Assembly (NCBI GenBank): GCA_963838925.1
Contig: CAWISW010000003.1
Location: forward strand, 640,001-704,000
Direction: 5' to 3'
Origin: an uncultured Nitrososphaerota archaeon
GTDB lineage: Archaea; Thermoproteota; Nitrososphaeria; Nitrososphaerales; Gagatemarchaeaceae
Length of the DNA stretch: 64,000 bases
The stretch's first letter is position 1. The number at the start of each line of letters is the position of its first letter. Positions 7,067-59,825 of this stretch are shown one piece after another. Both the position numbers and the translations under genes were made by a program. Under the pieces are notes generated by a model that ran no database searches, had not been told where the DNA came from, and saw only the letters and a list, made by a program, of their open reading frames with translations.

Positions 7067-7103
7067 CCGGGCCAGGTCGGCCCGCGACCCGCGCGAAGAT
7101 GGG

Positions 7104-7385: not shown

Positions 7386-7521
7386 GGCGAACTCACGAGC
7401 GGGCGGAGGCGTATACGTGTTTCCAAGGCGCCAGCCGAAGTCAGGAGCTCGCCGGACCCGATCCCCTGCAGAAAGCGGTCGCTTGGAAAGGCGTAAAATC
7501 CATGGAGACCACCCGAGGGAC

Positions 7522-10389: not shown

Positions 10390-10432
10390 GTCACAGCAGC
10401 GAAAGGCCGTAAAGGAGGAAGGAGACCACCAG
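10390..10432 (-). repeat. Diverged copy of the 3' end of the 7104-7385 gene
   Basis: 39/43 nt identical to 7103-7145; encodes LVVSFLLYGLSLL* vs LVVFFLLYGLSLL*. Confidence 0.85.
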
Positions 10433-10559: not shown

Positions 10560-11111
10560 TTGGTTTGCTGCAACCGGAGGCGGGGCGCAGCTAGGGGCGC
10601 GTGGGCGTTCATGTTGGCCGCCGTGCTGGTCGCCACAGCGGTCAGCGGCGCGGCAGTCTACTACACCTTTGGGCACTCTTCCTCAGCCATCGGCATAGGC
10701 ACCCCTTCCGACGCCGGGGTGACCGGCGCCCCTCCCGATTCTGCGCCCGGAAACTTCACCGCGCTCGCAGGGCAGGTGGCGGTGACCGTTGCCGGACTTG
10801 CTGCCGACGACTTCATGGCCAACGGCACGACCTCGAGTTTCACGTGCGGGTCGTCACCGTCCGGGGCCTACCTAGTCCTCACCGACACGAACACGGGGAG
10901 CGACGCCGTGGCCTCCGTCTCCATCTCCTCGGTGGGAGCGGTCACGGCCTTCACCCCATCAGGCATGTGCGACATAAGCGCCGCGACCACCTACATCGTC
11001 TTCCCCGCGACCTCTCAGATCAGCCCGGGCCCGGAGTCGGGCCAAAGCTACGAGGGGTTCGTGAGCATGGCGGACGGCGTGCCGATAACGTTCGAAGGCA
11101 CCTGGCAATAA
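10560..11111 (+). CDS. Secreted pilin-like/beta-sandwich protein
   Basis: RRRGAARGAWAFMLAAVLVATAVSGAAVYY; C-terminal ITFEGTWQ; ATTAATA box upstream of TTG. Confidence 0.7.
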   Translation: MVCCNRRRGAARGAWAFMLAAVLVATAVSGAAVYYTFGHSSSAIGIGTPSDAGVTGAPPDSAPGNFTALAGQVAVTVAGLAADDFMANGTTSSFTCGSSPSGAYLVLTDTNTGSDAVASVSISSVGAVTAFTPSGMCDISAATTYIVFPATSQISPGPESGQSYEGFVSMADGVPITFEGTWQ

Positions 11112-11113
11112 TC

Positions 11114-11230
11114 CAGTCAGTCAAGTCGGCCTGAAAGAGGCCCTTCGGGCAGACCGCATTGTACTCGCAGGCCTTGCACTTGCCCACCCCCGTGCTCGAG
11201 ATGGCCTGCCGCTCCCCCCAGGGGGTATCC
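11114..11230 (-). pseudogene. Displaced 3' end of a Cas4/Exo5-like nuclease gene
   Basis: Encodes GERQAISSTGVGKCKACEYNAVCPKGLF, matching 14281-14396 (GEREATSSTSVGKCKACEYCSVCPKSLF); 1-nt insertion. Confidence 0.88.
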
Positions 11231-11363
11231 ATGCTTCTGGATTATGCTGGCGTGCGCCGCGTGACCTCAAACACTCAACACTAGCCCGAACGCTCTTGAA
11301 GCGGTGGTCCGCGCACATTCTCGGGTGCGCCTTATAGCCCGGCCTCGCCTCCCTCCCCGCGCA

Positions 11364-12323
11364 TTGAAGGGCGTGATGGCGTGGCTCACCGAGGAGGACC
11401 AGCCGGCCGTCAGGTACCTCGCGATGCGCGACCTGCAGGACGGCAGCGGGGGAGACCTCACGGAGGCCCGCGCGGCGATACCGACTAGGGGCTGGGTCAA
11501 GCAGATCCACGAGAAGCGCCTCCCCGGAGCGTACTGGGTCCACCGCGAGGACCTCTACAGGCCCAAGTACTTCTCGACCAACTGGATGCTCCTGGCGCTC
11601 TCAGACCTCGGGGTGACGAGGGAGGTTCCGTGGGTGGCCGAGTCGGCGGAGATGTGGAGGGACACTTTCGCCCGGCCCGACGGGGGCTTCGACACGCCCG
11701 GCTCGGACACGAGCGAGCTCTGCCTCGTTGGGAACACGGCCAGGGCCCTCGTGAAGTTCGGCTACGAGGACGACCCCAAGGTGAAGGGGGCCTTCGAATG
11801 GCTGGTCAAGAACCAGAAGCCCAACGGGGGCTGGGACTGCTTCGGGAGGGACGGCGTGATCGACGGGTGGGAGGGGATGAGCGCGTTCGCGGCCCTGCCC
11901 CGGGGGAAGTGGACGCGCGGGATGAAGGAGGCCGCGGACAGGGGCCTCGAGTTCTACCTGGAGCGCCGTCTCCTCAACGAGGGCGGCCGGTACGACCCAT
12001 GGCGCAGGCTCCACTTCCCCTACCACTACTACTACGACGTCCTGGTGGGGCTCGAGTTCGTCACAGCCCTCGGCAAAGGGGACGACCCGCGGGCGGAGCA
12101 AGCCCTCCGGCTGCTCAAGAGGAAGAGGCGGTCAGACGGCCGCTGGCTGATGGAATCGGTTCACCCTGACGTCCTCAACTCGGGGAGGCTGCCGAAGTAC
12201 TATCTGAAGCGCAAGAAGGACCTGAGGCCCTTCTCGCTTGAGCGAGCGGGCAAGCCGAGCAAGATGATAACGCTGAGGGCGCTGCGGGTCCTGAAGCGCG
12301 TGGGCGAGCCGGTTCCTAGCTGA
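11364..12323 (+). CDS. Alpha/alpha-toroid protein with prenyltransferase/squalene-cyclase-like repeats (uncharacterised family)
   Basis: WLVKNQKPNGGWDC, KRRSDGRW, FPYHYYYDVL, GKPSKMITLRALRVL; TTATA 32 nt upstream of TTG. Confidence 0.8.
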   Translation: MKGVMAWLTEEDQPAVRYLAMRDLQDGSGGDLTEARAAIPTRGWVKQIHEKRLPGAYWVHREDLYRPKYFSTNWMLLALSDLGVTREVPWVAESAEMWRDTFARPDGGFDTPGSDTSELCLVGNTARALVKFGYEDDPKVKGAFEWLVKNQKPNGGWDCFGRDGVIDGWEGMSAFAALPRGKWTRGMKEAADRGLEFYLERRLLNEGGRYDPWRRLHFPYHYYYDVLVGLEFVTALGKGDDPRAEQALRLLKRKRRSDGRWLMESVHPDVLNSGRLPKYYLKRKKDLRPFSLERAGKPSKMITLRALRVLKRVGEPVPS

Positions 12324-12337
12324 GGCCCCGCTTAGCC

Positions 12338-12514
12338 CTACGCGTGGCTCGTCCCCTCACAGTGGTCGAGAATCGTCAGTAGGTTTGCCAGGATCGCCAG
12401 CTCGGACTCGACATCCTCTCTGGAGTGCTCGATTGCCTGCATGACGCGCCTTGTTACGGCAGGGACCAACCGGTCCGCCAGCTCGCAGACTCGAGCGTCG
12501 TCCTCAGCGGTCAT
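12338..12514 (-). CDS. Microprotein B1 (58 aa) of bicistronic cassette 1
   Basis: Manual translation MTAEDDARVCELADRLVPAVTRRVMQAIEHSREDVESELAILANLLTILDHCEGTSHA; ATGA overlap with A1; similar to B2/B3. Confidence 0.7.
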   Translation of the reverse strand: MTAEDDARVCELADRLVPAVTRRVMQAIEHSREDVESELAILANLLTILDHCEGTSHA

Positions 12515-12651
12515 CGTCTCCGCATTCTAGACACGTCAAGGGTTTCGTTCGCCCACTTCTCGAACGCCTTAGGGTCCTTTAGAAGCCGGTCGATGAAGCG
12601 CCTCGCGCTCTCCAAATCCTCTTCCGGCTGCGCCCGCCTTGCCTTGACCAT
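12511..12651 (-). CDS. Microprotein A1 (46 aa) of bicistronic cassette 1
   Basis: MVKARRAQPEEDLESARRFIDRLLKDPKAFEKWANETLDVSRMRRR; TTATTA box 30 nt upstream; similar to A2/A3. Confidence 0.72.
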   Translation of the reverse strand: MVKARRAQPEEDLESARRFIDRLLKDPKAFEKWANETLDVSRMRRR

Positions 12652-12793
12652 GTCCTGCTAAGATGGTAGGGTGGCTAATAAGCGTCGACGAGGACTGTGG
12701 TCGCGGCGAGCTCATCTTTCCAGGCAGGACATCGTTCAGGCAGACCGTGGATGCTTATTAGGCTCCGGCGATTGCAATGCCGACGGCCTAGAG

Positions 12794-12949
12794 GTGCAGT
12801 CCCTGGACAAGCCGCTGACCAAGAAGGAGCTCCAGAACTTGGACAAGCTTCTCCACGATGACGCGGCGTTCGAAAGGATGGTCGAGCGGGCCGTCAGGGG
12901 TAGAATGCAATCGGGACGAAACGCAAGAAAGTCTGCCCGAGAATCTTGA
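12794..12949 (+). CDS. Microprotein A2 (~51 aa) of bicistronic cassette 2
   Basis: MQSLDKPLTKKELQNLDKLLHDDAAFERMVERAVRGRM...; GCTTATTAG box upstream, the same 9-mer as cassette 1. Confidence 0.65.
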   Translation: MQSLDKPLTKKELQNLDKLLHDDAAFERMVERAVRGRMQSGRNARKSARES

Positions 12950-13082
12950 CAGGCTTGAGAGAGTCCTTCGAAGGCGGGTCATCCGCGCGCCCGTGCGAGA
13001 TCCCGAGCGGCTGTTTGACGAGCTCGACGACCTCAACTTGGTCCTTGAATTGAAGGACAGAATCAAGAGCAACTTACCTTGA
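12933..13082 (+). CDS. Microprotein B2 (~49 aa) of bicistronic cassette 2 (start uncertain: CTG 12933 or ATG 12858)
   Basis: PENLDRLERVLRRRVIRAPVRDPERLFDELDDLNLVLELKDRIKSNLP; overlaps the end of A2; similar to B1/B3. Confidence 0.6.
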   Translation: MPENLDRLERVLRRRVIRAPVRDPERLFDELDDLNLVLELKDRIKSNLP

Positions 13083-13138
13083 ACGTTCTAGGGGATCCCA
13101 CTCGGGCAAGCTCCCGACTTCGAGCAGTCTTTGGAGAG

Positions 13139-13208
13139 GCCGAGCAAGATGATTACCCTGAGGGCGTTGCGAGTCCTGAAGCACCTCTGCGAGCCGATGC
13201 TAGATTGA
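13139..13208 (+). repeat. Displaced copy of the 3' end of the 11364-12323 gene
   Basis: PSKMITLRALRVLKHLCEPMLD* vs PSKMITLRALRVLKRVGEPVPS*; first 43 nt 39/43 identical, stop at the same position. Confidence 0.88.
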
Positions 13209-13269
13209 GGTTGGGAGGCCCCCTTCCCTCATGCAGGCGCTCTGTCAAGGATCACTTTTCTTTGAAATA

Positions 13270-13470
13270 GCGTCGACACGGTAACAATCACTTCTTGGGG
13301 ACGAGACCCCACCCGCCTCCGGCTCCGGCGACTCGACGCCCCCTGCTCAGTCCGACGACAATTCCGACACGACGAGCCCTCCGCCGTCGAATGGCGGCTC
13401 GAGCCCGCCGAGCAGCGACTCGACCTCGGCGACCACCTCGCCCCGCCTATCCATTTCCCCAGTTCCTTAG
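13270..13470 (+). pseudogene. Fragment of a Ser/Pro/Asp-rich secreted protein gene
   Basis: Start-less frame DETPPASGSGDSTPPAQSDDNSDTTSPPPSNGGSSPPSSDSTSATTS...*. Confidence 0.4.
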
Positions 13471-13550
13471 ATTGGAACTGTAGCGGCCGGTGGGCGCTTT
13501 TTGGAGAGGCGACCTTATATCGAAGACAGAGTATGGAAAACCGAACTTCA

Positions 13551-13685
13551 GTGCCAGACCAGACTCCCGAGTCTGACGACGAAGCCATCCGCAGGATCGA
13601 CGAGCTGCTGAAGGACCCCAAGAGACTGAGAGAGGCCATCGAGTCTCGCATCGACAGGGTGGTCAAGAATTGGCCGAAGCATTGA
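13551..13685 (+). CDS. Microprotein A3 (44 aa; 50 aa from ATG 13533) of bicistronic cassette 3
   Basis: MPDQTPESDDEAIRRIDELLKDPKRLREAIESRIDRVVKNWPKH; CTTATAT box upstream; shares IDxLLKDPK with A1. Confidence 0.72.
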   Translation: MPDQTPESDDEAIRRIDELLKDPKRLREAIESRIDRVVKNWPKH

Positions 13686-13867
13686 ACGACGACATCCAGC
13701 GTCTCTGCCGGCTCCTAATCGACCACAAGAAAGTGCTCGCCCACAGAGCCCTCATAGCTTGGGAGCGAAGCCCCGAGACTTTTGGTGAAGAGATTATCGC
13801 CCTCAACAGCATCGATGAGACCTTGCGCAACAACCCGCTTCTCAGACCGGAGTCGAACAACCCGTGA
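13682..13867 (+). CDS. Microprotein B3 (~61-65 aa) of bicistronic cassette 3
   Basis: NDDIQRLCRLLIDHKKVLAHRALIAWERSPETFGEEIIALNSIDETLRNNP...; TTGA overlap with the A3 stop (alternative TTG at 13670). Confidence 0.7.
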   Translation: MNDDIQRLCRLLIDHKKVLAHRALIAWERSPETFGEEIIALNSIDETLRNNPLLRPESNNP

Positions 13868-13907
13868 ATCCATGTTTACCAGCAGCGGCCCCACGCAGTG
13901 ACACGAC

Positions 13908-13980
13908 TTGGAGCTCCCCGACGACGAGCTGGTGGATGTCTACGACGACGCCCTCCTCCAAGGCACGCGGTCGTTATGAG
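13908..13980 (+). pseudogene. Truncated 5' end of a NUDIX paralog
   Basis: 13920-13954 is 32/35 identical to 4646-4680 (DDELVDVY); preceded by GTTTA box and TTG, then decays. Confidence 0.75.
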
Positions 13981-14287
13981 AGACGTAGATGAGCACGGCA
14001 CGCCACACTGCCTGCTAGACTTATGCTGATCAATGCCCTACGTGGGCGCTTTAGTCCGTACACGGCCTGAACGCGAGGAGTCTGTTGAGGTGGTTGAGGG
14101 GCCGCGATGAAGGATTAGCAATCGGACCATCATCCCACATGGAATGACGGGAACACGATGTGGTCTGAGCCCCTCGATCCTTGACCCTCAGGCTCTCATA
14201 AGAGCGTTCTGAGGGTGGGCGCATCGGTCTCCGCGCGCGACCACGACGGGCAGGCAGAACTGGCCGCCTCAACAGCGATTCAGTTGG

Positions 14288-15085
14288 TCAAGTGGGCTTG
14301 AAGAGGCTCTTTGGGCAGACCGAGCAGTACTCGCAGGCCTTGCACTTGCCCACGCTCGTGCTCGACGTCGCCTCCCTCTCGCCCAGCCAGTACCCCCGCT
14401 TCTCCATCACGCTCGCCTCCGCCGCGGCCCTGTCGTGGGAGAGGAGGTGCACCTTCATCGCGTTCCGGTACTTGGCCTCGAGCTCGGCCAGCTTCCCCGA
14501 CTCCAGGTGGGTCGAGACCCTCTCCATCCAGAGCCCGCGCTCCTCCTCCGTGAGCTCCCCCGCCCTCAGCCTCACCAGGGCGAGCCTCAGGCGGGAGCAG
14601 TCGAACCCCATCAGCTCCAGGAGGAGGCCGTAGATCCGGACCTGGTTCATCTGGTCGGGCCAAAGGGAGGTCGGGTCGCCCCTCGTGGTCTTCAGCTCGA
14701 CGAGCCAGAGCGGCCTCCCCTCAGACCACACGATGTGGTCGGGCTCGCCGACTATCCGAAGGCCGCCGACGGTCGCCCAGACCCTCAGCACCGCGTAGCT
14801 CGGCTCCTTCCTGCTCACGAGCTCGGCGAACTGCCTCTCCGTGATGGGCTCCTGCGGGATGAGCTCGTCGTGCAGGTCCGTCCCCGCGTCCTTCGCCTCG
14901 GTGGGGACCTCCCCGAACGCGAACTCGTTCTCGACCTTGTACTCGCAGTAGAACTGGCCGGCTATCGTGGAGACCGCGACGAAGCTCGCGTCGTGGCGGA
15001 AGTTCTTCTCGCCCGATAGCATGAATTCCTTTTCGCGTCTCCACAAGGAATCCCAAAATGCAGCCCGTCGAGCGGCGTCAGTCAA
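14288..15085 (-). CDS. Solo Cas4/Exo5-like PD-(D/E)XK nuclease with 4Fe-4S ligands
   Basis: QFYCEYK + C-terminal CKACEYCSVC, GTDLH, GEPDHI...VELKT, QVRIYG; start may be ATG 15022. Confidence 0.85.
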   Translation of the reverse strand: MTDAARRAAFWDSLWRREKEFMLSGEKNFRHDASFVAVSTIAGQFYCEYKVENEFAFGEVPTEAKDAGTDLHDELIPQEPITERQFAELVSRKEPSYAVLRVWATVGGLRIVGEPDHIVWSEGRPLWLVELKTTRGDPTSLWPDQMNQVRIYGLLLELMGFDCSRLRLALVRLRAGELTEEERGLWMERVSTHLESGKLAELEAKYRNAMKVHLLSHDRAAAEASVMEKRGYWLGEREATSSTSVGKCKACEYCSVCPKSLFKPT

Positions 15086-16822: not shown

Positions 16823-18832
16823 GTGTTGACAGCTTCTGCTCATCCCACCTCTGCATTTCTGGGACTCCGCCTAAAGCCAATCCTAATCGAGCTTGAGAAG
16901 GAGATCCAAAACCTCGAAGAGAAGACGTCTCCCTACAAGACATACGCAGCATATATTCAGCGAAAGGACAGAGCGGAATGTCTGAATGAAGTCAAGTCAC
17001 TTTTGAGAAGGATTCACGGTTTGCGCTCTCGGACATTCTTTGCAACTTGGAGGAATCGCACGGTGCTTCACTCTCTGCAGTCTAGGACATACGCTCTCAA
17101 GAATTTCCTCGAAGGTTATTGTTCAGAGTATGCGAGCGCCGAGGTCAATCGGAGGAAGGCGTTCTTCGACGAAGCTAGATTGGACGAAGAACAAAAAACC
17201 GCTGTAGTGAAGGACGAGTCCCACCATCTGGTCATTGCGGCGGCAGGTTCAGGCAAGACCCGAACTCTAACAGCGAGGATTGCCCTTCTGATTGAACGAG
17301 GAGTACCGCAAGAAAGAATCCTTGCTCTCACATACACCAACGCGGCTGTGGCCGAAATGACGTCCAGACTCAACTCCCAATACGGCATCAAGGCTAACGT
17401 GAACACGTTTCACTCCTTTTGTCATGACTTAGCCAAGGAATCACAGGACTTCAGAAGCGGGGTAGCGGGAGCAAAAGAGCACCAGTTCATTCGTCAAGCC
17501 GCTGAAAGGCTAGCGTCCAATAACAAAGATTTCGCGCTGAAGATGCTCAACTTTGCCGAGGAGTTCAAAAGAGCCGAGGAGAAGAAACAGCAAGAATTTC
17601 CGACCGCAGAAGAGTACTACAAGTACCTACGCCATCAGGAATACCAGACACTGAACCTAGTGCCTGTGAAGTCGATAGCTGAATGCGAGATAGGTAATTT
17701 TCTCTTCTTGCACGGTGTGCGGTTCGAGTACGAGGCTTCTGCGAAGTGGGCCGACAGAAGTCCTGCGTTCCGAGACTACCAACCCGATTTCTTTCTGCCC
17801 GACTACGGTCTCTATCTGGAGCATTGGGCCAGCGATAGAAAGGGGAGAGTTCCGGATTGGTTCTCGGACGGTGGCTCGGGAGACCCCTCGGAGCGATACC
17901 GGGAGGGGATGGAGTGGAAGAGAGACCAGTTCAAGAAGCAGAATCGACGACTGGTTGAGACCTTCCACTATCAAGTCGCAGAAGGTGATCTTCTACGCAA
18001 CCTTAGGATGCAGCTGGAGGCGAATGGTGTCATGCTCGCCGACCTCCCTATGGACGAGGTCATCAGACGAATCGACGGGGAAATTCGGCGCGATCCGCTT
18101 CATGAGATTGTCTTGTCCTTCATCAAGCGGGGGAAGACCAACGGGCTAGTGCCGTCCGACATTCAAGCCCGGCTTGAATCCGGCAACTGGACGAAGAAGC
18201 AGCGGGATTTCGCTTCCCTGATGGTGCTCATCTGGATAGAGTACGAGAACCTCCTCAGGGAGAGCAACATGCTTGATTTCAATGACATGGTGACTCTCGC
18301 CCTGCAGGTGGCTCGGAAGAAGGGGTCTGATCTGGCGAAGCAATATCCTCACATCCTTGTCGACGAGTTCCAAGACATCACCGACCCTCAACTCGAACTG
18401 ATACGATGCATCTCATCTGGGTCCGGGAACGGCGGAACCTTGTTCTGCGTGGGGGACCACAGACAAAACATCTTTTCTTTCGCCGGGTCAAACGTCAAGA
18501 ACATCCTCGAGTTCGATGAAAGCTTCCCAGACTCGGAGAGGACGCTGTTATCCACCAACTATCGATGCCCAAGCAACGTGGTCAGAGCTTCGAACCAGCT
18601 GATGGTCAGCCACCCAGGTGAAACGCCGGCAGTCCCAATGTCAACCGAGGTTCGTCCTATCCGTCTGATTCAGAAGAGCGACAATCTTCAGTACGACAAA
18701 TGGGAGGCGCAATCGGCAAGAACGCTGCTGAACGAGCTTCTCGAGACGAAGAAAGACGATGAGGACATCTTGGTCCTGGCTCGATACAATTTCCGCTATC
18801 AAGACTTAGATGTCTTTTGGCGAAGACGCTAA
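16823..18832 (+). CDS. UvrD/HelD (helicase IV-like) SF1 helicase with embedded PD-(D/E)XK-like domain, N-terminal part
   Basis: AAAGSGKT, ILALTYTN, LVDEFQD, VGDHRQNIFSFAGS, LSTNYRC; insert YQPDFFLPDYGLYLEHW. Confidence 0.88.
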   Translation: MLTASAHPTSAFLGLRLKPILIELEKEIQNLEEKTSPYKTYAAYIQRKDRAECLNEVKSLLRRIHGLRSRTFFATWRNRTVLHSLQSRTYALKNFLEGYCSEYASAEVNRRKAFFDEARLDEEQKTAVVKDESHHLVIAAAGSGKTRTLTARIALLIERGVPQERILALTYTNAAVAEMTSRLNSQYGIKANVNTFHSFCHDLAKESQDFRSGVAGAKEHQFIRQAAERLASNNKDFALKMLNFAEEFKRAEEKKQQEFPTAEEYYKYLRHQEYQTLNLVPVKSIAECEIGNFLFLHGVRFEYEASAKWADRSPAFRDYQPDFFLPDYGLYLEHWASDRKGRVPDWFSDGGSGDPSERYREGMEWKRDQFKKQNRRLVETFHYQVAEGDLLRNLRMQLEANGVMLADLPMDEVIRRIDGEIRRDPLHEIVLSFIKRGKTNGLVPSDIQARLESGNWTKKQRDFASLMVLIWIEYENLLRESNMLDFNDMVTLALQVARKKGSDLAKQYPHILVDEFQDITDPQLELIRCISSGSGNGGTLFCVGDHRQNIFSFAGSNVKNILEFDESFPDSERTLLSTNYRCPSNVVRASNQLMVSHPGETPAVPMSTEVRPIRLIQKSDNLQYDKWEAQSARTLLNELLETKKDDEDILVLARYNFRYQDLDVFWRRR

Positions 18833-19316
18833 GCGCGGATTGGCGTTCGCGTCCATTCACGGAGCGAAGGGGATGGAGGCAGACTACGTTGTGCTTCTGG
18901 GGTGTGTTGGAGGCTTGTTCGGATTTCCCTCGGCAATCTTGGATGACGAACTCCTGGACATCGTGAGCAATCACAAGCAGGACACGAACGAGAAGCTGGA
19001 GGAGGAGAGGAGGCTGTTCTACGTCGCGCTGACTAGGTGTAGGAAGCAACTGTATATCTTCACCTCAGAGGTAGACAGGTCGCCGTTTCTTGCCGAGATT
19101 GACGAGCTTCGACACCGCGACGACGGCTATTGCATCAGGTCAGGTCATAGAATCCCGTTCAACAAAAGGGATCCGCTGTGCCCTAGCTGCCGTCGCACGT
19201 GGGATCGGTACAAGAGGAAGAACTATCCCGAGAAATGGTGTCACTCTTGCGGGGAGCCCGCTGAGACTTCTTTTGCCAGACCGTTGTGCATAAGATGTTG
19301 GCGGAAATCCAGATAG
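18810..19316 (+). CDS. C-terminal part of the UvrD helicase (other frame) plus Cys-rich zinc-finger tail
   Basis: SIHGAKGMEAD, EEERRLFYVALTR; PLCPSC...WCHSCG...PLCIRC; implies a frameshift or split near 18805-18830. Confidence 0.85.
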   Translation: MSFGEDAKRGLAFASIHGAKGMEADYVVLLGCVGGLFGFPSAILDDELLDIVSNHKQDTNEKLEEERRLFYVALTRCRKQLYIFTSEVDRSPFLAEIDELRHRDDGYCIRSGHRIPFNKRDPLCPSCRRTWDRYKRKNYPEKWCHSCGEPAETSFARPLCIRCWRKSR

Positions 19317-19365
19317 AACCGAAGTCGGTGACAAATAAATATCGGTGGATCCCTAAAAATGGTCA

Positions 19366-19812
19366 TTGGCCCATTTCGAGGGAATCACGGATGAGAAGGG
19401 AAGGGTCAGGTTCGACGACATGCCTCCTGGCATTTACACCGTGACGGTCGAGGCCGAAGGCTCCGAGCCTGTCGAAAGGAAGATCCAAGTGAAGTCTCCT
19501 GAGGACGACGTATCACTCAACATAAACCTGAAGCCAATAACCACTGGTTTCTTGGCTCTTCAGAACAAACGGCTCAGGGCGCTAATTCTGTCCTCCACGG
19601 ACATGCTAAGAGTGGGCGCGTACGTCAGCGAGAGCGAACGGCTGATCAAACTTTCGTCGCCCGGTCTCAGGAAGTACGCCACAAGTCAATTCGAAAAGAC
19701 GAGTGAGTCGGCCAGAAGGAGAATCGAAGAGCTGCGAAAGCTCGAGTCTTCCGTCTCGGTCGGAATTGGCCCAACTGGACTGAAGTTCTCTAAGAGAGTG
19801 AAGAAGCGGTAG
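19366..19812 (+). CDS. Carboxypeptidase-regulatory-like beta-sandwich domain protein
   Basis: TDEKGRVRFDDMPPGIYTVTVEAEG; AATAAATA box upstream. Confidence 0.7.
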   Translation: MAHFEGITDEKGRVRFDDMPPGIYTVTVEAEGSEPVERKIQVKSPEDDVSLNINLKPITTGFLALQNKRLRALILSSTDMLRVGAYVSESERLIKLSSPGLRKYATSQFEKTSESARRRIEELRKLESSVSVGIGPTGLKFSKRVKKR

Positions 19813-19876
19813 GGCATTCGGTCGCATCGAGCCGAGGCGGAAGCTGGTTGTCTTCTCAGAGGCCTGACGGAAGGTT

Positions 19877-21670
19877 CTAACGTTTGGTCTTGGGCGCAGG
19901 TTGAGCTGGGCCTGCCAGCTCTGATAGCTCTATTTTTGCCAGTATCTCTGCGGCCTTCCGAGCCAAGGCGGGGTTCTTGCTGCCATGGTGCCGGCTCAAT
20001 GCCCTTTGGAATCTTTTCACCTCATTACGGTGGAGCTTTCCTCTAAGTGCCGTATACTGATACCCTTCCTTGATGCTGGCCCAAGTACCCAGCTGAGATT
20101 CCAGCCTCGTCAGCCACTCAAACAGATCAGCGGCGGCTTCAAGCCTCGATTCTAGCACGATGGACTTCAATTGGCCGACCCGTTTGATTGCCCCCGCGTT
20201 CTGCTGCAACACTTCCGCCGCAGATGCCCATTTCAGCGTTGGCGTACTGAACCCAATGGTGAGGGTCCCCTGTGCACCCCCTTCTTCAATCTTGACCGAC
20301 AGCCGGGCGAGTGTGGCTTCAAGTCTCTCCTTCCATATCTTGCATCGCGAGGAATCTGCATAGGCCGAGTAGGTTGTCAGGGCACGGAGGCAAATCCCAA
20401 TCGCATCTGACGGTTTTTCGCTGAGCATGGAGTCTAGGTTGATTTGCTGGTCTATTTCTTCGACCTTGTCGATGTGGCTGCAGTCGAGGAAGTATTGCAG
20501 TTCGCTAATCCAGTAGTCTGGGACCTCTTGGCCCTCCATTTGCCTGTCTAGCCGATTTCTCTCCACTTGATAACCGAGTCTGACATATGGGAAGAATAGG
20601 GTCTTCAGATAGGGCAGGACTTTCTCGAATTCGTAGGGCAGGCAGATGGTCCGTCCGGCAAGCTCGGAATCTACCGGAAGCGAGAGGCCTAGTTGGTTGG
20701 GGCTCTCGTCAAGCACAACTCTCCGCTTGTCGTAATATCTCAGGCGAGTTTGGTAGACGTCGCGGCAATCGGGGCCCACCAGAATAAGAATGAACTGTCG
20801 ATTGCGGCGAGCCGCGTCCCAGAACACGCGTCTTATGTGGTCATCCCTGAACGAGTATCCTGCAACGGTAACGTTGCCGACGGACTCGAGCCGATTCTTG
20901 AGCTCCATCAAGAGTTCCTGCAGGGGTTCTTCATATTCCCACTTTCTCATGGGGTAAAGGATCAGGGTCTCTGCAGTCTCTCCGGTGATTAGCTCAGTTC
21001 TGGCGTTGAGGCTCGTGACCGGAATCTTCACGTAACTGCCCGTGTCGGTTCGATACCACATTATCGACCCATGGAGCTTGTAGAGTCTCACGTCCACATC
21101 GGTCCGCTCGAAGTTCTTTCTGTTCCACTCGAAGTCGAACCCGTCCACGTACCTCTTCTTGTTGACATTGCAGAGCTGCTCGACCGCGATGTCGTAGTTG
21201 ACGGAAAAGACATCTAACGGTTTGCCTCCTTTCTTGAAGCCGAAAAGAGGCTGCAGATAGGCGACTTTGCCAGGCGCTACCTCGCCTTTCTTCCGGATAA
21301 AGTTCCTCAGTTTCCCGCTCAGAATGCCCACTTCGACGGGGTCTAATGACTTTGATTCGGGGAGCCTGAGGAACCTAGCGAGGACGTCTTGGTCCAAGTT
21401 CGCTAGTCGCTCCATCGTCTCCAGGAGGAGCTCAACGTCCGCCCCGCCACTGATGCCTTCTTGCATGCCTCTCCAATCGCGGAGTACTCGAAGAATGTCC
21501 TCAAGGACACGCGTCTCGTGTTCATCGCTGAGAGTCGACTTGAACGCCTCTACGAAACCGAAGGTGGTTGGCACGCCTGCGGCAACCGATGCGCCCGCAC
21601 CCAAGAAGAAGATCTCGTCGTCTGTGTTTTGGCCGGACAAATGACCACTGCTTCTGCCCAAGGTTTCCAT
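19877..21670 (-). CDS. SIR2-like (defence-type) NADase domain protein
   Basis: FFLGAGASVAAGVPT, FSVNYD, YKLHGS, GYSFRDDHI; helical C-terminal half. Confidence 0.9.
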   Translation of the reverse strand: METLGRSSGHLSGQNTDDEIFFLGAGASVAAGVPTTFGFVEAFKSTLSDEHETRVLEDILRVLRDWRGMQEGISGGADVELLLETMERLANLDQDVLARFLRLPESKSLDPVEVGILSGKLRNFIRKKGEVAPGKVAYLQPLFGFKKGGKPLDVFSVNYDIAVEQLCNVNKKRYVDGFDFEWNRKNFERTDVDVRLYKLHGSIMWYRTDTGSYVKIPVTSLNARTELITGETAETLILYPMRKWEYEEPLQELLMELKNRLESVGNVTVAGYSFRDDHIRRVFWDAARRNRQFILILVGPDCRDVYQTRLRYYDKRRVVLDESPNQLGLSLPVDSELAGRTICLPYEFEKVLPYLKTLFFPYVRLGYQVERNRLDRQMEGQEVPDYWISELQYFLDCSHIDKVEEIDQQINLDSMLSEKPSDAIGICLRALTTYSAYADSSRCKIWKERLEATLARLSVKIEEGGAQGTLTIGFSTPTLKWASAAEVLQQNAGAIKRVGQLKSIVLESRLEAAADLFEWLTRLESQLGTWASIKEGYQYTALRGKLHRNEVKRFQRALSRHHGSKNPALARKAAEILAKIELSELAGPAQPAPKTKR

Positions 21671-21743
21671 CCTTATTATAGCAAATGCGCTAGGCGCTAT
21701 GGCGTCTAATTGCGCGAGCCGTGTGATTGCAGCGAGGCCGACA

Positions 21744-21920
21744 CTATGCAGTCCTGGATTCGTCTGTCCTCCTGCCTAGCTCACTGAGCACCTTCGAGAG
21801 GTCTAGGTCTTTGGACTTTGACGACTCGATGGTCGAGATGAGTTCATCCATGGGGGATTCGCCTTCAGAATCTTCCACAGGGCTAGCGTTCAACCCCAGT
21901 ATATGCGCCATATGGCCCAT
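21744..21920 (-). CDS. Possible small acidic protein or gene remnant
   Basis: MGHMAHILGLNASPVEDSEGESPMDELISTIESSK...; plausible composition only. Confidence 0.35.
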   Translation of the reverse strand: MGHMAHILGLNASPVEDSEGESPMDELISTIESSKSKDLDLSKVLSELGRRTDESRTA

Positions 21921-22047
21921 GGCCTCAGCTCGAGGTGCTTGACAAGCGGCAGATGGAACTTCCTTGTGGTCCCGGATTGCAGGTCTGCATAGAGCGGAAC
22001 GGGGTTCGTCAGGGAAACCACGCACTCGCCGAGGAGTTCCATCGGGC

Positions 22048-22341
22048 ATGCCTCTAGGCGGCCGGGTCTATGCCGCTCTTCACCAGATATCTGATCAAAA
22101 GAAACTCAAGGCCCACGTCATCTTCATAGTTGACAAGAATGGGAAGCTTGAAGGCGAAATAGCCGGGCCGGTAACGATTGGTGCTTGGTATTTGCCAAGA
22201 ATGAGGAAGAAGGAAGCTGCTCAGATAGTTCAGGATTACCTCAAAGAAGAATATCCCCACAAGAAGATTCAAGTTGAAGACATCAAGCTGTATTCTAGCA
22301 AGAAGGCAAATGAGCTATTGTTCAAGCTCGAGAACAAGTGA
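22048..22341 (+). CDS. Small basic hypothetical protein
   Basis: KLKAHVIFIVDKNGKLEGEI...VQDYLKEEYPHKKIQVEDIKL; start uncertain. Confidence 0.55.
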   Translation: MPLGGRVYAALHQISDQKKLKAHVIFIVDKNGKLEGEIAGPVTIGAWYLPRMRKKEAAQIVQDYLKEEYPHKKIQVEDIKLYSSKKANELLFKLENK

Positions 22342-22383
22342 CCTCATGGGGGCATAAATTGTCGTTACGAAGATGTTATCAGC

Positions 22384-25300
22384 GTGACGTTTCCATTGCT
22401 GGAGGGCAGCCTATTGAATCCGGTGGAGAAGTACTTCCAAGATCTCCGAGATATTAGGTCAACCGGCGCAGCAGTGCCAGAAACATCGTACTACGGTGCT
22501 CTTGAATCTCTTCTAAACGAGATTGGACGGACAATGAACCCGAAAGTAAGGTGCGTCATTAACATTGCGAACAGAGGAGTCGGGATTCCCGATGGGGGGC
22601 TGTTTACTGAAAGTCAGTTTCAACGACTAGACTTGGGGAAACCGATGGGTGGACAGCTTCCTGAAAGAGGAGTTGTCGAAGTGAAACCGACTGGCGACGA
22701 TGCTTGGGTGACGAGTTCCGGAGAGCAGGTCACCAGATATTGGGGTGAATATGGCCTCGTTTTGGTTACCAACTACAGGGACTTCGTTTTGGTTGGTAGA
22801 GACTCCCAAGGCAGAGCAGAGCGACTCGAAACTTACCGCTTGGCGGACACCGAATCGGATTTCTGGGGAATGGTCGCACATCCAAAGAGAGCGGACAAAC
22901 AGCAAGGTGAGCGCTTAACCGAATACCTGAAACGAGTCCTATTGCATGCCGCTCCTATCACTTCTCCCGAGGATGTAGCATGGTTCCTTGCCTCCTATGC
23001 CAGAGATTCGAGGGCGAGAATCGAAGGGGCAGAACTACCATCACTCAACACAGTGCGTCAGGCTTTGGAGGATGCGCTTGGGCTCAAGTTTGAAGGCGAA
23101 AAGGGAGAACACTTCTTCAGGTCAACTTTGATACAGACTTTGTTCTACGGTGTCTTTTCTGCCTGGGTCTTATGGAGCAAAGACCTTTCACCCAATGACA
23201 ACTCATCGAGGTTTGATTGGCGAATAGCGGCGTGGTCTCTGCGAATACCAATGATAAGGGTCCTCTTCGAGCAGATTGCAACACCGCAGCTTGGCTCCTT
23301 GGGTTTGGTGGAGCCTTTGGATTGGGCTTCTGCGGTTCTTAACAGGGTAGATCGGCCGAGGTTCTTCAGCACTTTTGATCAAGGCTATGCCGTCCAATAC
23401 TTTTACGAGCCATTTCTAGAGCAGTTGGATCCAGAACTCAGAAAAACATTGGGAGTGTGGTACACTCCTCCAGAGATTGTAAAGTACATGGTTGCAAGGG
23501 TAGATACAGTTCTCCGACAAGAGCTCGACATTCCCGATGGCTTGGCGGACCCGAGAGTGGTGGTCCTTGATCCATGTTGCGGGACAGGCACTTATCTGAT
23601 TGAGGCAATACGACTAATCGCGCGTACTATCAAAGAGAAGCATGGAGACGCTCTAGCGCCTCAGGAAATCAAGAAAGCCGCAATGGAAAGAATCTATGGT
23701 TTTGAGATTCTTCCGGCGCCATTCATTGTAGCGCATTTGCAAATGGATCTCCTCCTTCAGCAGCTTCAAGCACCGTTCCTGCAAGAAAAGTCTGAGCGCG
23801 CGTCAATCTACCTGACGAATGCGTTGACGGGTTGGACGTCCCAAGAGGAAGCCTCGCACCAAGCGTTCTTCCCCGAACTTGAGAAGGAGAGATCCGCCTC
23901 AGAAGGCGTAAAGCGCGCGAGACCTATTCTGGTCGTGCTAGGAAACCCGCCATACGATGCGTTCGCTGGGGTGAGTTCCGCTGAGGAAGACCACGTAGTT
24001 GATTTGTACAAGGAAGGTCTGAACGAACCAGTAAGCAGAGGTGGATGGGGAATCAAGAAGTTCAACCTCGATGACTTGTACATCCGTTTTTTCAGAATCG
24101 CAGAGCGGCGCATCGTTGACGGAGAGCCGGGCTACGGGATAGTCTGCTTCATCTCAAATTTCTCCTTCCTCAGAAGAGACTCTTATGTCGTTATGCGTCA
24201 AAGATTTGCGAAGGAGTTCGACTCAGTTTGGCTTGACTGCATGAATGGTGACAGCAGAGAGACTGGGAAACTTACTCCGGACGGCGGCTCTGACCCATCG
24301 GTTTTCTCAACGGATTATCATCCTGTCGGTATTCGTGTGGGTACAGTCATCTCCTTGTTCGCTCGGAAACCTCAAAGGAGCGAGAAGATGTCCATTCGGT
24401 ATCGAGACTTTTGGGGAGTCGCGAAGAGAGCAGACTTGCTGAAGAGTCTTCAGGTTGCAGACTTTGATAAGCAGTACGAGCAGATTCAGCCCTCGAAACA
24501 GAATCGTTACTTGTTCCACCCGACGGCCGAAGGGGGAAGATACGAACACTGGCCCAAGCTCACAGACTTGAGCAGAGAAGCACCGATTAACGGGCTAATG
24601 GAGAAACGAGGAGGAGGGCTTATAGACATTGATCGGACCAAGATTGAGGAAAGAATGCAGAGATACTTCGACAAGAATGTCGATTGGGACACATTCGTGT
24701 TAGGGAACTCCAAGCTCACCGAAAATGCAGCCGGATTCACAGCAAAAGAGGTCCGTCAGAAGCTGCTCAATTCCGAGCAATATCAGGCCGAACGAGTGGT
24801 GCCATACGCTCTCCGACCGTATGATACAAGATGGTGCTACTATAGCAGCGTGAATCCCTTGTGGAATAGGTCGAGACCCAAGCTTTGGGGCCAATATCGG
24901 AAAAAGAATGGATTTGTAATGTCACGTCCAACGGGGGTGGCTAGTCCTGAAGGGATTCCTTTCTTTTTTACGCGGCTACTTGGCGATAACGATTTCCTAC
25001 GAGGCCATGCCTACTACATCCCGATTAAGCTCTTTCAAGATGAGGGCGATGGCTCCACACTCTTTCCCAAGGCTCAATCTGGGCTGGATTGGGAGGCCAA
25101 TCTCTCGCCCAAGGCAATCAGCTACCTTATGGATTTGGGAATAGCAAGCCTCGAAGATGAAGACTCCGCAAGTCTTGTTTGGATGCACGTACTTGCGATT
25201 GGTTTCTCACCTAGTTACTTGCTAGAAAACGAAGACGGCATCCGTAGAGATTGGCCAAGAATTCCTATGCCTCAATCAAAGGAGCTACTTGCGTCCTCTG

Positions 25301-25932
25301 CTCTCATGGGCAAGAGGATAGCTGACCTTCTGGATTCCAAATCGGTCGATGGTGTGAATTCAGGCCAAATCAAGCAGGAGTTGAGTATCATCGGTTCTGT
25401 TTCGAGAAAGGATGAAGGGGCAATCGATTTGAACGCCGGAGACCTTGATGTCACCGCGCATTGGGGAAGTATCGGAAAGGATGGTGCTGTCATGCCGGGA
25501 CCTGGGATTGTCGTCTGGCGAAACTACGCTGAGGATGAACTCAAACAACTGGCGAATGGCGCCATCCTTCTTGGAATGTCATTGAGAGAGATTACAGATC
25601 TCCTCGGGCCGAGAGTGCTAGATGTCTATCTCAATGAGAATGTCTTTTGGAGCGGGATTCCTGAAAAAGTGTGGGGCTTCACCATTGGTGGCTATCAAGT
25701 GCTAAAGAAGTGGCTTAGCTATCGAGAAAAGAGAGTCCTTGGCCGAGGACTCAGCGTAGATGAGGCACGCGAGGTTACAGTGATCGCACGCCGCATTGCG
25801 TCACTCGTATTGATGCATCCGTCGCTGAATGAGAATTACACGCTGAGCAAGAACTCTGCCGTCGACTGGCTAAATACTTCTGAGAGCATTGGCGCGAGAG
25901 ACTTGCCTTCATCACTTGGGGCTATCTCCTAA
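22384..25932 (+). CDS. Single-chain restriction-modification enzyme (type IIG/IIL, ISP-like C-terminal specificity domain)
   Basis: N-terminal PDGG...VEVK nuclease motif, GVWYTP, LDPCCGTG, GNPPY, YALRPYDTRW, DWPRIP, FTIGGYQVLKKWLSYR. Confidence 0.9.
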   Translation: MTFPLLEGSLLNPVEKYFQDLRDIRSTGAAVPETSYYGALESLLNEIGRTMNPKVRCVINIANRGVGIPDGGLFTESQFQRLDLGKPMGGQLPERGVVEVKPTGDDAWVTSSGEQVTRYWGEYGLVLVTNYRDFVLVGRDSQGRAERLETYRLADTESDFWGMVAHPKRADKQQGERLTEYLKRVLLHAAPITSPEDVAWFLASYARDSRARIEGAELPSLNTVRQALEDALGLKFEGEKGEHFFRSTLIQTLFYGVFSAWVLWSKDLSPNDNSSRFDWRIAAWSLRIPMIRVLFEQIATPQLGSLGLVEPLDWASAVLNRVDRPRFFSTFDQGYAVQYFYEPFLEQLDPELRKTLGVWYTPPEIVKYMVARVDTVLRQELDIPDGLADPRVVVLDPCCGTGTYLIEAIRLIARTIKEKHGDALAPQEIKKAAMERIYGFEILPAPFIVAHLQMDLLLQQLQAPFLQEKSERASIYLTNALTGWTSQEEASHQAFFPELEKERSASEGVKRARPILVVLGNPPYDAFAGVSSAEEDHVVDLYKEGLNEPVSRGGWGIKKFNLDDLYIRFFRIAERRIVDGEPGYGIVCFISNFSFLRRDSYVVMRQRFAKEFDSVWLDCMNGDSRETGKLTPDGGSDPSVFSTDYHPVGIRVGTVISLFARKPQRSEKMSIRYRDFWGVAKRADLLKSLQVADFDKQYEQIQPSKQNRYLFHPTAEGGRYEHWPKLTDLSREAPINGLMEKRGGGLIDIDRTKIEERMQRYFDKNVDWDTFVLGNSKLTENAAGFTAKEVRQKLLNSEQYQAERVVPYALRPYDTRWCYYSSVNPLWNRSRPKLWGQYRKKNGFVMSRPTGVASPEGIPFFFTRLLGDNDFLRGHAYYIPIKLFQDEGDGSTLFPKAQSGLDWEANLSPKAISYLMDLGIASLEDEDSASLVWMHVLAIGFSPSYLLENEDGIRRDWPRIPMPQSKELLASSALMGKRIADLLDSKSVDGVNSGQIKQELSIIGSVSRKDEGAIDLNAGDLDVTAHWGSIGKDGAVMPGPGIVVWRNYAEDELKQLANGAILLGMSLREITDLLGPRVLDVYLNENVFWSGIPEKVWGFTIGGYQVLKKWLSYREKRVLGRGLSVDEAREVTVIARRIASLVLMHPSLNENYTLSKNSAVDWLNTSESIGARDLPSSLGAIS

Positions 25933-26424: not shown

Positions 26425-28617
26425 ATGCCGAAGTTCAAGTCCACGTCTGAAGCGCTGAAGATCGTCCACAACCGTGAGCAGTTGAGGAACATGGGCATCA
26501 TCGCCCACGTGGACCACGGTAAGACCACCACAGCTGACTCTCTGCTCGCGGCCTGCGGAATGCTCTCCCCCTCGGTGGCCGGCCAGGCGCTCGCCCTCGA
26601 CTACATGGAGCTCGAGCAGCAGAGGCAGATGACCATCAAGGCGGCAAATGTCACGCTTTACTACGAAAAGGACGGGACGCCCTACGTCATCAACCTCATC
26701 GACACTCCGGGGCACATTGACTTCACTGGGAAGGTCACAAGGTCGTTACGGGCCGTAGACGGCGCAATCGTCGTGATTGACTCTGTCGAGGGAATCATGA
26801 CTCAGACCGAGACTGTAACCCGTCAGGCGCTCGAGGAGCGCGTCCGGCCGGTCATGTACATCAACAAGATCGACCGCCTCATCAAGGAGCTCCGCCTCAA
26901 CCCGGAGCAGATGCAAAAATGGCTCTTCAACATCGTCGCCGACTTCAACCGCCTCGTCGAGACCCACGCGGAGCCCCAGTACAGGGAGCTCTGGAAGGTC
27001 AAGATACAGGACTCGATGGTCGCGTTCGGCTCGAGCAAAGACAAGTGGGGCTTCAACTCCGACATCGCGAAGGCCACCGGGATGGGCTTCAAGGACATCT
27101 ACGAGGCCTACACGACCGGCGACCCCAAGACGCTGGGCGAGAGGATGCCCCTCCACGAGGCGCTCCTCGGGATGGTCGTCAAGCACCACCCGCCGCCGCA
27201 CGTGGCGCAGGCCTACCGCATCCCCAAGATCTGGTCGGGCGGCGACCTCAACAGCGACGTCGGCAAGGCCCTGCTGGCCTGCGACGAGAACGGCCCCATG
27301 GTCATGATGGTCACCAACGTCGTCGTCGACCCGGCCGCCGGCCTGGTCGGCGTGGGCAGGCTCTTCTCTGGTCAGGTGAGCAACGGCGACGAGGTCTACC
27401 TCCTCAACTCGAAGCGCGAGGGGAAGATCCAGTCCGTCCAGATATTCATGGGCTTCCAGCGCGAGATAGTCGACACGCTCCCCGCGGGCAACATCCCGGC
27501 CATACTCGGGCTCGACATTCGCTCCGGCGAGACGATCTCCACGCGGAAGGACGTCCAGCCCTTCGAGAGCATCCACTACGTCTCCGAGCCGGTGGTCACC
27601 CAGGCCGTCGAGGCGAAGCACCCGCGCGACCTCCCCAAGCTCGTCGAGGCCATGCGCCGCCTGAACATTGAGGACCCCAACCTCATCATCACCATCAACC
27701 AGGAGAGCGGGGAGACCCTGATGGCGGGCATGGGCGTCCTCCACTTGGAGATTGCCACCACCATGCTCCAGCGGCAGGGGCTGGAGATAATCACCTCGGA
27801 GCCGATCACCAACTACCGCGAGACCATCAGGCAGCCGGCGGGGCCGATAATGAGCAAGTCGCCCAACCGCCACAACAAGATATTCATGAAGGTCGAGCCG
27901 CTCGCCCCGGACATCGTCGAGATGATCCGAAAGGGGGAGCTGAGCGACAACACCGACAAGAAGACGGTGGTCAAGCTCCTCCGCGACCACGGCTGGGACT
28001 CGGACACGTCGCGGACGGTCGTGGAGATAGACAACAAGGGCAACATGCTCTGCGAGGAGACGAAGGGAGTCCAGTTCCTGGCGGAGTCGATGGACACCAT
28101 GCGCTCCGGCTTCGAGGACGTCATGACGAACGGCCCCCTCGCCTACGAGCTCTGCAGGGGGGTCAAGGCGACGCTCACCCACTACGTGCCGCACGAAGAC
28201 GCGGCCCACAGGACCTACGCCCAGCTCATGCCGGCGACCAGGCGCGCCGTCCTCGGCGCGATGCTCCTGGGCAACCCCACCCTCCTCGAGCCCGTCCTGG
28301 GCATAGAGGTCAAGGGCCCCTCCGACCAGATTGGCGCGATCACGGGGGTCATCAGCGGGAAGAGGGGCAAGCTCATCAACATCGAGCAGCGCGAGGCGCT
28401 CACGATCGTGGAGGGAGAGATCCCGGCCGCGGAGACCATGGACCTCAGCCAGGAGATGAGGGGAGCGACGGCGGGGAGGGCGGTCTGGAACACCTACTTC
28501 AAGCTCTGGCAGGCGGTCCCGACCAACCTGCTCCCGGTGCTCGTCGCACAGATCAGGAAGCGCAAGGGCCTGCCCGAGGAAGCCCCGAAGGCCTCCGAGT
28601 TCATCGACAACGAGTAG
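26425..28617 (+). CDS. fusA: Archaeal translation elongation factor 2
   Basis: AHVDHGKTT, DTPGHIDF, INKIDR, KSPNRHNK, HEDAAHRT, IRKRKGL; 730 aa. Confidence 0.98.
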   Translation: MPKFKSTSEALKIVHNREQLRNMGIIAHVDHGKTTTADSLLAACGMLSPSVAGQALALDYMELEQQRQMTIKAANVTLYYEKDGTPYVINLIDTPGHIDFTGKVTRSLRAVDGAIVVIDSVEGIMTQTETVTRQALEERVRPVMYINKIDRLIKELRLNPEQMQKWLFNIVADFNRLVETHAEPQYRELWKVKIQDSMVAFGSSKDKWGFNSDIAKATGMGFKDIYEAYTTGDPKTLGERMPLHEALLGMVVKHHPPPHVAQAYRIPKIWSGGDLNSDVGKALLACDENGPMVMMVTNVVVDPAAGLVGVGRLFSGQVSNGDEVYLLNSKREGKIQSVQIFMGFQREIVDTLPAGNIPAILGLDIRSGETISTRKDVQPFESIHYVSEPVVTQAVEAKHPRDLPKLVEAMRRLNIEDPNLIITINQESGETLMAGMGVLHLEIATTMLQRQGLEIITSEPITNYRETIRQPAGPIMSKSPNRHNKIFMKVEPLAPDIVEMIRKGELSDNTDKKTVVKLLRDHGWDSDTSRTVVEIDNKGNMLCEETKGVQFLAESMDTMRSGFEDVMTNGPLAYELCRGVKATLTHYVPHEDAAHRTYAQLMPATRRAVLGAMLLGNPTLLEPVLGIEVKGPSDQIGAITGVISGKRGKLINIEQREALTIVEGEIPAAETMDLSQEMRGATAGRAVWNTYFKLWQAVPTNLLPVLVAQIRKRKGLPEEAPKASEFIDNE
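28594..28613 (+). repeat. Direct repeat copy 1 (EF-2 3' end)
   Basis: TCCGAGTTCATCGACAACGA, exact match to 29379-29398. Confidence 0.9.
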
Positions 28618-59750: not shown

Positions 59751-59825
59751 GGGCCCGTCGCCTAGCTCGGACAGGGCACGGGGCTTCGGACCCCGGTGTC
59801 GCGGGTTCAAATCCTGCCGGGCCCG
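59751..59825 (+). tRNA. tRNA-Arg(TCG)
   Basis: Acceptor stem GGGCCCG/CGGGCCC, anticodon arm CGGGG-CTTCGGA-CCCCG, T arm GCGGG-TTCAAAT-CCTGC; no intron, no encoded CCA. Confidence 0.95.

Follow-up and report, generated by a model that had tools for sequence, protein, structure and literature searches.

Duplicated gene ends in an integrase-free variable region of a soil archaeon, tentatively read as scars of additive recombination

We analysed a stretch of 64,000 nucleotides (nt), called the window in what follows, from the genome of an uncultured Nitrososphaerales-like soil archaeon (assembly GCA_963838925.1). The window corresponds to G000:C3:640001-704000, where G000 stands for the genome (1.84 Mb on 3 contigs, 61% GC, 87% complete) and C3 for the contig. 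Its variable region, which lies between core genes and the EF-2 gene, contains the 3′ ends of two genes in duplicate: that of a Cas4-like nuclease gene and that of a gene encoding an alpha/alpha-toroid protein, hereafter the toroid gene. The reading that we favor, with reserve, is that both repeats are decaying 3′-terminal stubs, one from a second nuclease copy and the other from a second and more divergent toroid gene. This arrangement could stem from additive recombination, in which DNA from related lineages was taken up, and from subsequent decay; we give this mechanism slightly less than an even chance. The finding as a whole may then be described as gene-end scars in a flexible, cassette-shuffling and integrase-free region. 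The sole unusual point is that the start of the nuclease relics falls on almost the same codon in genomes of different origin.

The intact nuclease gene (14288..15085, minus strand) has a longest open reading frame (ORF) of 265 amino acids (aa), while the public gene call is 244 aa long. The predicted PD-(D/E)XK nuclease carries a C-terminal Cys cluster and matches Pfam family PF12705 (E 6e-8) as well as the PADLOC models for Cas4 (E ~1e-6). Since the protein scores 25.1 bits against the CRISPR-Cas4 model TIGR00372 (cut-off 65), and since a search of the genome returned no Cas1 (PF01867), "Cas4-like" describes the fold type only. The repeated part of this gene comprises the last ~141 nt (14288-14428). 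Its second copy, the nuclease relic (11111..11261, minus strand), corresponds to codons ~219-265 (~47 codons) and ~10 nt beyond the stop. A repeat search aligned 11128-11218 with 14294-14384 (91 nt, 81% identity, 17 mismatches, longest exact run 27 nt), and blastn, applied to a 30-kb self-comparison, extended this match to 11111-11261 versus 14278-14426 (151 nt, 77.5%, E 8e-26). The repeat that an earlier note on this DNA had placed at 11114-11230 is therefore real, but was drawn short at its 5′ side. The 1.84-Mb genome contains no third copy.

A frame shift near the end of the nuclease relic has removed its stop codon. The ratio of nonsynonymous to synonymous differences (pN/pS) for the relic against six references ranges from 0.5 to 1.2, compared to 0.12-0.37 for intact genes over the same codons. 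Because of this raised ratio, the relic reads as an old, decaying stub and not as a fresh attachment (att) site. Within the nuclease protein, conservation is highest, and not lowest, in the duplicated 3′ part. We also scanned the intact gene for a breakpoint at codon 219. Comparison with the gene of relative G017 gave a synonymous difference (pS) of 0.09 for codons 130-218 and of 0.31 for codons 219-262, with p = 0.06 for codons 40-218 versus codons 219-262. This is a weak hint, and scans of identity and synonymous distance against the other references gave none.

The toroid gene (11304..12323, plus strand; likely start ATG 11376) encodes a squalene-cyclase-like protein that reaches 25.0 bits against Pfam SQHop_cyclase_C, slightly below the cut-off of 26.1, and is 84% identical in aa sequence to the G017 copy. 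A paralog is located on contig C1 of the same genome. As the earlier note had claimed, the last 70 nt of this gene (12254-12323) recur at 13139-13208. The search aligned 12254-12311 with 13139-13196 (58 nt, 86%, E 9e-13); over the full 70 nt there are 15 mismatches, and the longest exact run is 15 nt. The toroid relic (13139..13210, plus strand) is what remains of a more divergent toroid allele, namely its final 24 codons; read in frame, it reaches a stop at the gene's own position (13208-13210). The first 16 shared codons differ at only four sites, all synonymous and precisely those that had been named before (ATA/ATT, ACG/ACC, CTG/TTG and CGG/CGA), and the differences in the last 7 codons are mostly replacements. 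In sequencing run X2, a contig agrees with the relic at 90% or more, starting at 13138; before this point another 10 codons (30 letters) can be seen, and these read as toroid protein. Given the synonymous-only core, the preserved stop and the continuation of the X2 contig as toroid protein, we read the toroid relic as derived from a diverged, once-functional allele that is present in the community. The earlier proposal that both copies come from diverged functional alleles, for which a dN/dS-type comparison had been suggested, thus holds for the toroid copy, whereas the nuclease copy shows decay. In the conserved core, the end still attached to the toroid gene is close to that of the G017 gene, and the relic is the more distant copy. 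This is the opposite of what a simple displacement of the original end would leave behind.

All relatives used for comparison are other species or metagenome contigs, and synteny was mapped by tblastn and ORF clustering after tblastx maps had given nothing and then noise. Nuclease homologs occur in 25 of the 61 relatives searched first and in 62 of 97 family genomes; their sources assign them to Nitrososphaerales or Thaumarchaeota metagenome genomes. The neighborhood of the gene is not conserved across the family, and among members of the genus these genes come back in varying order. In G017 and in metagenome locus L057 the order is EF-2, homologs of a small-ORF cassette (cassette 3, see below), a nudix gene, the toroid gene and a whole nuclease gene, the last two head-to-head and 1.2 kb apart. 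In the window, the position of G017's whole nuclease gene, head-to-head with the toroid gene, is taken by the nuclease relic. A tail-to-tail arrangement of the two whole genes, ~40 nt apart, is found in L054 and G085; the window has it between its intact nuclease gene and the toroid relic, at a distance of 1.08 kb. Since head-to-head and tail-to-tail pairs both exist whole in relatives, the geometry of the window, which had been described as nested, can equally be read as two interleaved pairs with one stub each. The gene-end copies proved to be true relics; with this second reading at hand, and with no clear breakpoint at codon 219, nested insertion by 3′-end replacement is one possible order of events. 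Other relatives carry the nuclease gene in still other settings. G022 has a zinc-ribbon gene directly after the nuclease gene, and G009 has a nuclease relic alone, followed by the same zinc-ribbon gene. G003 has the order nuclease-p170-relic, and the window has p170-nuclease. The compact arrangements in L054, G085 and G022 belong to other species with otherwise different flanks.

Nuclease and toroid-family genes are neighbors, separated by no more than a few kb, in several family genomes, in all orientations (for example L103:5612-7357, L054:10001-11844 and G112:C1:28932-30698). This recurrent adjacency suggests a functional or island-level link. In the nuclease gene of G022 (L021:9414-10280), one inserted nucleotide changes the reading frame just past the CxxC motif; this may be a sequencing error or mark a broken gene. 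In G017, the DNA that separates the toroid gene from the nuclease gene holds two ORFs of 131 and 130 aa (L022:8833-9625), which by eye resemble an AbrB-type antitoxin and a PIN-domain toxin.

The DNA between the two stubs of the window consists of two-gene modules, one further small ORF and a scrap of a nudix gene; it is not an autonomous element. Cassette 1 (12338..12651, minus strand) is made up of two overlapping ORFs of 46 aa (12511-12651) and 58 aa (12338-12514). It has a paralogous pair at G000:C3:393941-394236 and homologs in L058. Cassette 2 (12671..13082, plus strand) likewise has two overlapping ORFs, of 92 and 74 aa by longest ORF, its true starts being uncertain, and has homologs at two separate places in G009. 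Cassette 3 (13533..13867, plus strand; overlapping ORFs of 50 and 65 aa) has homologs beside the nudix and toroid genes of G017, in G020, and next to a p170 paralog on contig C2. The first ORFs of cassettes 1 and 3 share a 20-residue motif (14/20 identical), to which cassette 2 offers a weak match with the 46-aa ORF; the second ORFs of cassettes 1 and 3 do not align. A conserved ORF of 73 aa (14051..14272, minus strand) lies just downstream of the intact nuclease gene and moves as a unit in relatives; in G020 it is 68% identical over 69 residues and has no adjoining nuclease gene. None of these small ORFs matches Pfam, PADLOC, NCBIfam or PHROGs, and as to function the best ESM Atlas score, 0.79, is a lead only.

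Two further scraps, absent from the earlier note, lie in or close to this interval. The 3′ end of a 139-aa membrane ORF (7103-7145; whole copy 7104-7523) recurs 3.3 kb away on the same strand at 10390..10432 (minus strand, 43 nt, 91%), where it closes an otherwise unrelated 81-aa ORF. An internal piece of a nudix/IDI-like gene (13914..13955, plus strand, 35-42 nt) matches the window's own copy of that gene (4646-4680) at 91% and the nudix genes of G017 and G009 at ~90%. The occurrence of both within the same 10 kb points to repeated rearrangement. In relatives the small modules are shuffled: G020 has cassette 1, cassette 3 and the 73-aa ORF in the order of the window, with a membrane gene among them and without a nuclease gene, and the same modules are ordered differently in G009, G017 and G020. 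The homology blocks of these units stop close to the ORFs. From this reordering we conclude that the units move as small blocks.

Another cassette-rich stretch lies at the start of contig C2 (G000:C2:400-9000). It contains seven copies of a ~45-85-nt motif, of which four more exist elsewhere in the genome, and these copies surround the p170 paralog (80.6% aa identity) and the paralog of cassette 3.

No recombinase was found among the ORFs of the interval by comparison with Pfam. A six-frame search of the genome, as the earlier note had proposed, returned one tyrosine recombinase (PF00589) at C3:13943-14476, ~626 kb away, and no serine recombinase (PF00239). The interval is thus integrase-free as stated before; given 87% completeness, the absence of a recombinase from the genome is not proven.

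Relics of the nuclease 3′ end occur at seven places: in G000, G003, G009 and G024, twice in G110, and in one strain represented by read contigs. Only partial copies away from contig ends were counted, and an N-terminal piece in G105 was left out because it stops at a contig end. All seven clear relics hold 3′-end sequence and six of them reach the gene end; G085 adds one weak internal match. Since detection depended on the core around the Cys cluster, which is conserved, search bias explains part of the excess of 3′ pieces, but not the clustering of the boundaries. A second gene-end copy nearby was present in only one (G003) of 62 fetched loci that hold the nuclease gene end. With regard to the earlier idea of repeated 3′-end replacement, the nuclease gene end is indeed recurrent, while at the toroid gene it is the attached end, not the relic, that matches relatives.

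The boundary of each relic was expressed as the number of codons before the gene end, stop included, and measured against 16 whole genes, with an error of a few codons for diverged relics. For the window relic we obtained 46-48 codons (9/16 references give 44-48). Copy A in G110, which belongs to another genus and carries a 2-nt deletion, starts at 48 codons (11/16 references). The strain in runs X1 and X2 gave 47 codons; its contig covers 14041-14428 at ~91%, has unlike DNA on both sides, and runs into such DNA at 14428. The remaining boundaries are 41.7 codons for G110 copy B, 31-32 for G003, 31-33 for G009 and 99-104 for G024. The DNA that adjoins the boundary, read by eye and unscored, has no motif common to the three cases at 46-48 codons, and the boundary region folded as single-stranded DNA shows nothing unusual (z-scores +0.8 to +1.2). 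We found no integrase on the contigs with the G110 relics or within 100 kb of the G009 relic, and no mobile-element families among the ORFs around the G110 relics.

Public runs that hold stretches of the window are soil metagenomes. The evidence from reads consists of low-depth Logan contigs, and stretches without cover were not counted. Contigs without a single difference span 11028-11924 (897 nt; end of p212, nuclease relic and start of the toroid gene), 11829-12359 (toroid end), 12354-12671, 13410-13936, and the end of the nuclease gene (14156-14306 and 14304-14454). Among those listed, none with zero differences crosses the toroid relic at 13139-13210.

Homology-facilitated illegitimate recombination combines one homologous anchor with a non-homologous join, requires no dedicated recombinase, and may leave partial duplicates. 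Additive recombination in the window could have taken a similar course. DNA of a related lineage, carrying the conserved nuclease/toroid pair in another arrangement, would have been added by recombination. The incoming DNA would have been anchored by homology in the nuclease or the toroid gene, and its other end closed by a non-homologous or single-crossover join. By such an anchor and such a join, part of a resident gene would end up in duplicate instead of being exchanged. For each gene, a single copy would then stay whole, while the redundant pieces would lose their 5′ parts and decay. How the events followed each other, and by which type of join, is what we infer from the present arrangement. 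This course of events would explain why the toroid relic derives from a diverged functional allele and why the nuclease relic is in decay, and it would also account for the interleaved pairs, the scraps, the shuffled units and the lack of a recombinase. If this plain reading is true, the window is a well-documented case of variable and defence regions in uncultured soil Thaumarchaeota being rebuilt without recombinases of their own, and partial gene duplicates can serve as datable scars.

Several observations weigh against additive recombination. Three relics (window, G110 copy A and the X1/X2 strain) start 46-48 codons before the gene end and two start at 31-33; random non-homologous joins do not predict this, and neither does homology-facilitated illegitimate recombination. 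Both G110 relics share 97-99% identity with the nuclease gene of G110 itself, located on another contig. This similarity fits within-genome copying or gene conversion, not foreign DNA. The synonymous distance of the window's nuclease relic is smallest to G017's gene (0.18) and largest to the window's own gene (0.36), but these values rest on ~27 sites and do not differ significantly. No donor of the nuclease part was identified. Finally, we found no allele of the same species without the inserts, an empty site that the earlier note had wanted to see among close relatives.

The clustered boundaries are the main support for a different view, which we consider rather unlikely: the relics may be remnants of site-specific integrative elements, with the last ~141 nt from codon ~219 as attachment site and an integrase that was lost or acts in trans. 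Every integrating element would supply a new gene end and push the former one aside. The relic boundaries cluster at 46-48 codons at three places in two genera and at 31-33 codons in two genomes; the fact that all clear relics contain 3′-end sequence points in the same direction. The same genome has relic-type repeats behind a tRNA-Arg gene, and a displaced gene end of 59 nt beside its only tyrosine recombinase (both described below). A 2019 survey of integrated elements in Thaumarchaeota reports that 3′-distal parts of protein genes are targeted in 14 of 68 cases, and that att sites are generally short, with one example of 13 bp and crenarchaeal sites quoted at 29-69 bp (PMC6563490). Those elements resemble the window in that they come from the same phylum-level group, are marked by a direct repeat of a gene 3′ end and leave the function of the gene intact; tandem re-use of a site is also described there (PMC6563490). 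They differ in that they carry integrases or casposases, whereas the window has a repeat of ~141-150 nt with copies 77-81% alike, no integrase, and a content of host-type genes and tiny ORF pairs (PMC6563490).

Direct repeats that bound the inserted DNA are thus present in the window, but they are imperfect (77-86% identity), and no integrase lies inside or beside the presumed element. The divergence of the nuclease copies and the raised pN of the relic do not suit an attachment site, nor do the intact gene without a clear breakpoint, the relic flanks without a common motif, the integrase-free surroundings of the G110 and G009 relics, and a cargo that includes a host-type toroid gene. Among the matches listed, no viral contig holds the nuclease gene or its end; none of three stretches found by pattern encodes a relative, and 80 fetched loci match the motif only. 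In the Escherichia coli icd prophages (e14 and phage 21), the phage supplies a substitute 3′ end, the integrase adjoins the site, and the prophage is a defined unit. The window shares with this case a long duplicated gene end, largely synonymous differences and homology that begins at a fixed point; unlike there, the foreign-looking copy is the toroid relic and not the attached end.

Other classes of elements fit less well. With no Cas1 in the genome and no long inverted repeats around the interval, the interval is not a casposon, and the eight TnpB-like genes of the genome lie without exception on contigs C1 and C2. Integrons have also been described in archaea, and like integron arrays the window combines small, promoter-poor gene units in variable order at one locus. 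Unlike integrons, it has no IntI-type gene nearby, no tyrosine recombinase anywhere in the window, and no attC-like repeat or other repeat family common to the cassette borders. A near-copy of a gene 3′ end close to the gene is also typical of diversity-generating retroelements. We excluded this class because the genome contains no reverse transcriptase (PF00078) and because the mismatches are spread over all four bases rather than tied to adenine.

A purely local history is, in our view, unlikely. Here the pair would have been duplicated in place, and reciprocal deletions would have left the stubs without any contribution of foreign DNA. The interleaved geometry permits this, the G110 relics with their close similarity to the resident gene provide a parallel, and the toroid family is multi-copy, being present in 84 of 97 family genomes with many fragments of varied boundaries. 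On the other hand, the core of the toroid relic differs from the gene only synonymously and has a closer allele in the community. The nuclease relic and gene are 19-23% apart, whereas the neutral-type excess of the relic amounts to only ~0.1 per site, and an in-place duplication does not predict the clustering of boundaries.

The same clustering could mean that the gene end at codon 219 is a dedicated docking site for integrase-less cassettes in soil Nitrososphaerales, with each capture supplying a fresh gene end. We regard this as quite improbable. Catalysis might then fall to the nuclease or to a recombinase supplied in trans, and the result may be an integron-like platform, or one akin to Xer-exploiting elements, on the end of a protein-coding gene. 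If the boundary near codon ~219 holds across genera in a larger survey, it would indicate site-preferring insertion or breakage at the end of a protein-coding gene.

It is highly improbable that the stubs are kept for a function, be it as silent donor cassettes for the nuclease C-terminus or as genes for free Cys-cluster peptides. Silent partial gene copies are known from pilS-type cassettes, and relics that share their 5′ boundary and retain 3′ parts alone would suit them; the window relic also carries an ATG-started ORF of 70 aa (11020-11232). However, the relic has lost its stop by the frame shift, G110 copy A has its 2-nt deletion, pN/pS is near 1 against some references, and the repeated part is the most conserved stretch of the protein rather than a variable one.

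Chimeric joins between strains, which a metagenome-type assembly with related strains co-occurring in the same soil runs could in principle contain and which the earlier note had listed as a possible refutation, are the least credible source of the duplications, because contigs of other runs span, without error, the p212/relic/toroid join, the toroid end and the nuclease gene end, because comparable relics exist in independent genomes, and because copies that are 77-86% alike would hardly collapse or mis-join.

To the right of the nuclease gene the window continues with two unknown ORFs, a defence island of low GC content (16823..25932, GC 50-55%) and the EF-2 gene (26425..28617, plus strand), which is 96% identical in aa sequence in L057 and forms the conserved anchor on this flank of the variable region. 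The island contains a UvrD/GajB-like helicase split in two ORFs (16823-18832 and 18810-19316), a SIR2-like protein (19877-21670) and a type IIG restriction-methylase (22384-25932).

A genome-wide screen for copies of gene ends returned 135 pairs, 55 of them with one copy at an ORF end, and these were mostly repeat arrays; at this GC content the screen is too noisy for a rate. Elsewhere in the genome there is a 59-nt copy (85%) of an ORF 3′ end, at L104:3212-3270 and 4721-4779 (G000:C3:11211-11269 and 12720-12778), whose source ORF adjoins a signal-peptidase-like gene. The two copies bound a single unknown ORF of 464 aa, and the only tyrosine recombinase of the genome (L104:5608-6903) follows 0.8 kb past the second copy. 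This is a second unit without an integrase of its own that is bounded by a displaced gene end, here adjoining an integrase.

In the window itself, a tRNA-Arg gene (59751-59826) is followed by low-GC DNA up to 61960. This DNA contains two copies of 56 nt (60995-61050 and 61905-61960, 86% alike), which end in sequence resembling the 3′ end of the tRNA-Arg gene and look like stacked remnants of tRNA-integrated elements. The ORFs between them match no Pfam family and include no integrase; for one ORF of 293 aa, the best match among PDB sequences has an E value of 0.15. In addition, a conserved element of ~60-130 nt is present in ~26 copies, 0.6-5 kb apart, in two arrays (G000:C3:171-204 kb and 363-372 kb). 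The element has no Rfam match. Within each array, all copies lie on one strand, often right after ORF ends (for example L102:969-1084, 2093-2174, 4073-4185 and 4719-4846), and they could be either an array of cassettes or conserved untranslated regions of one family.

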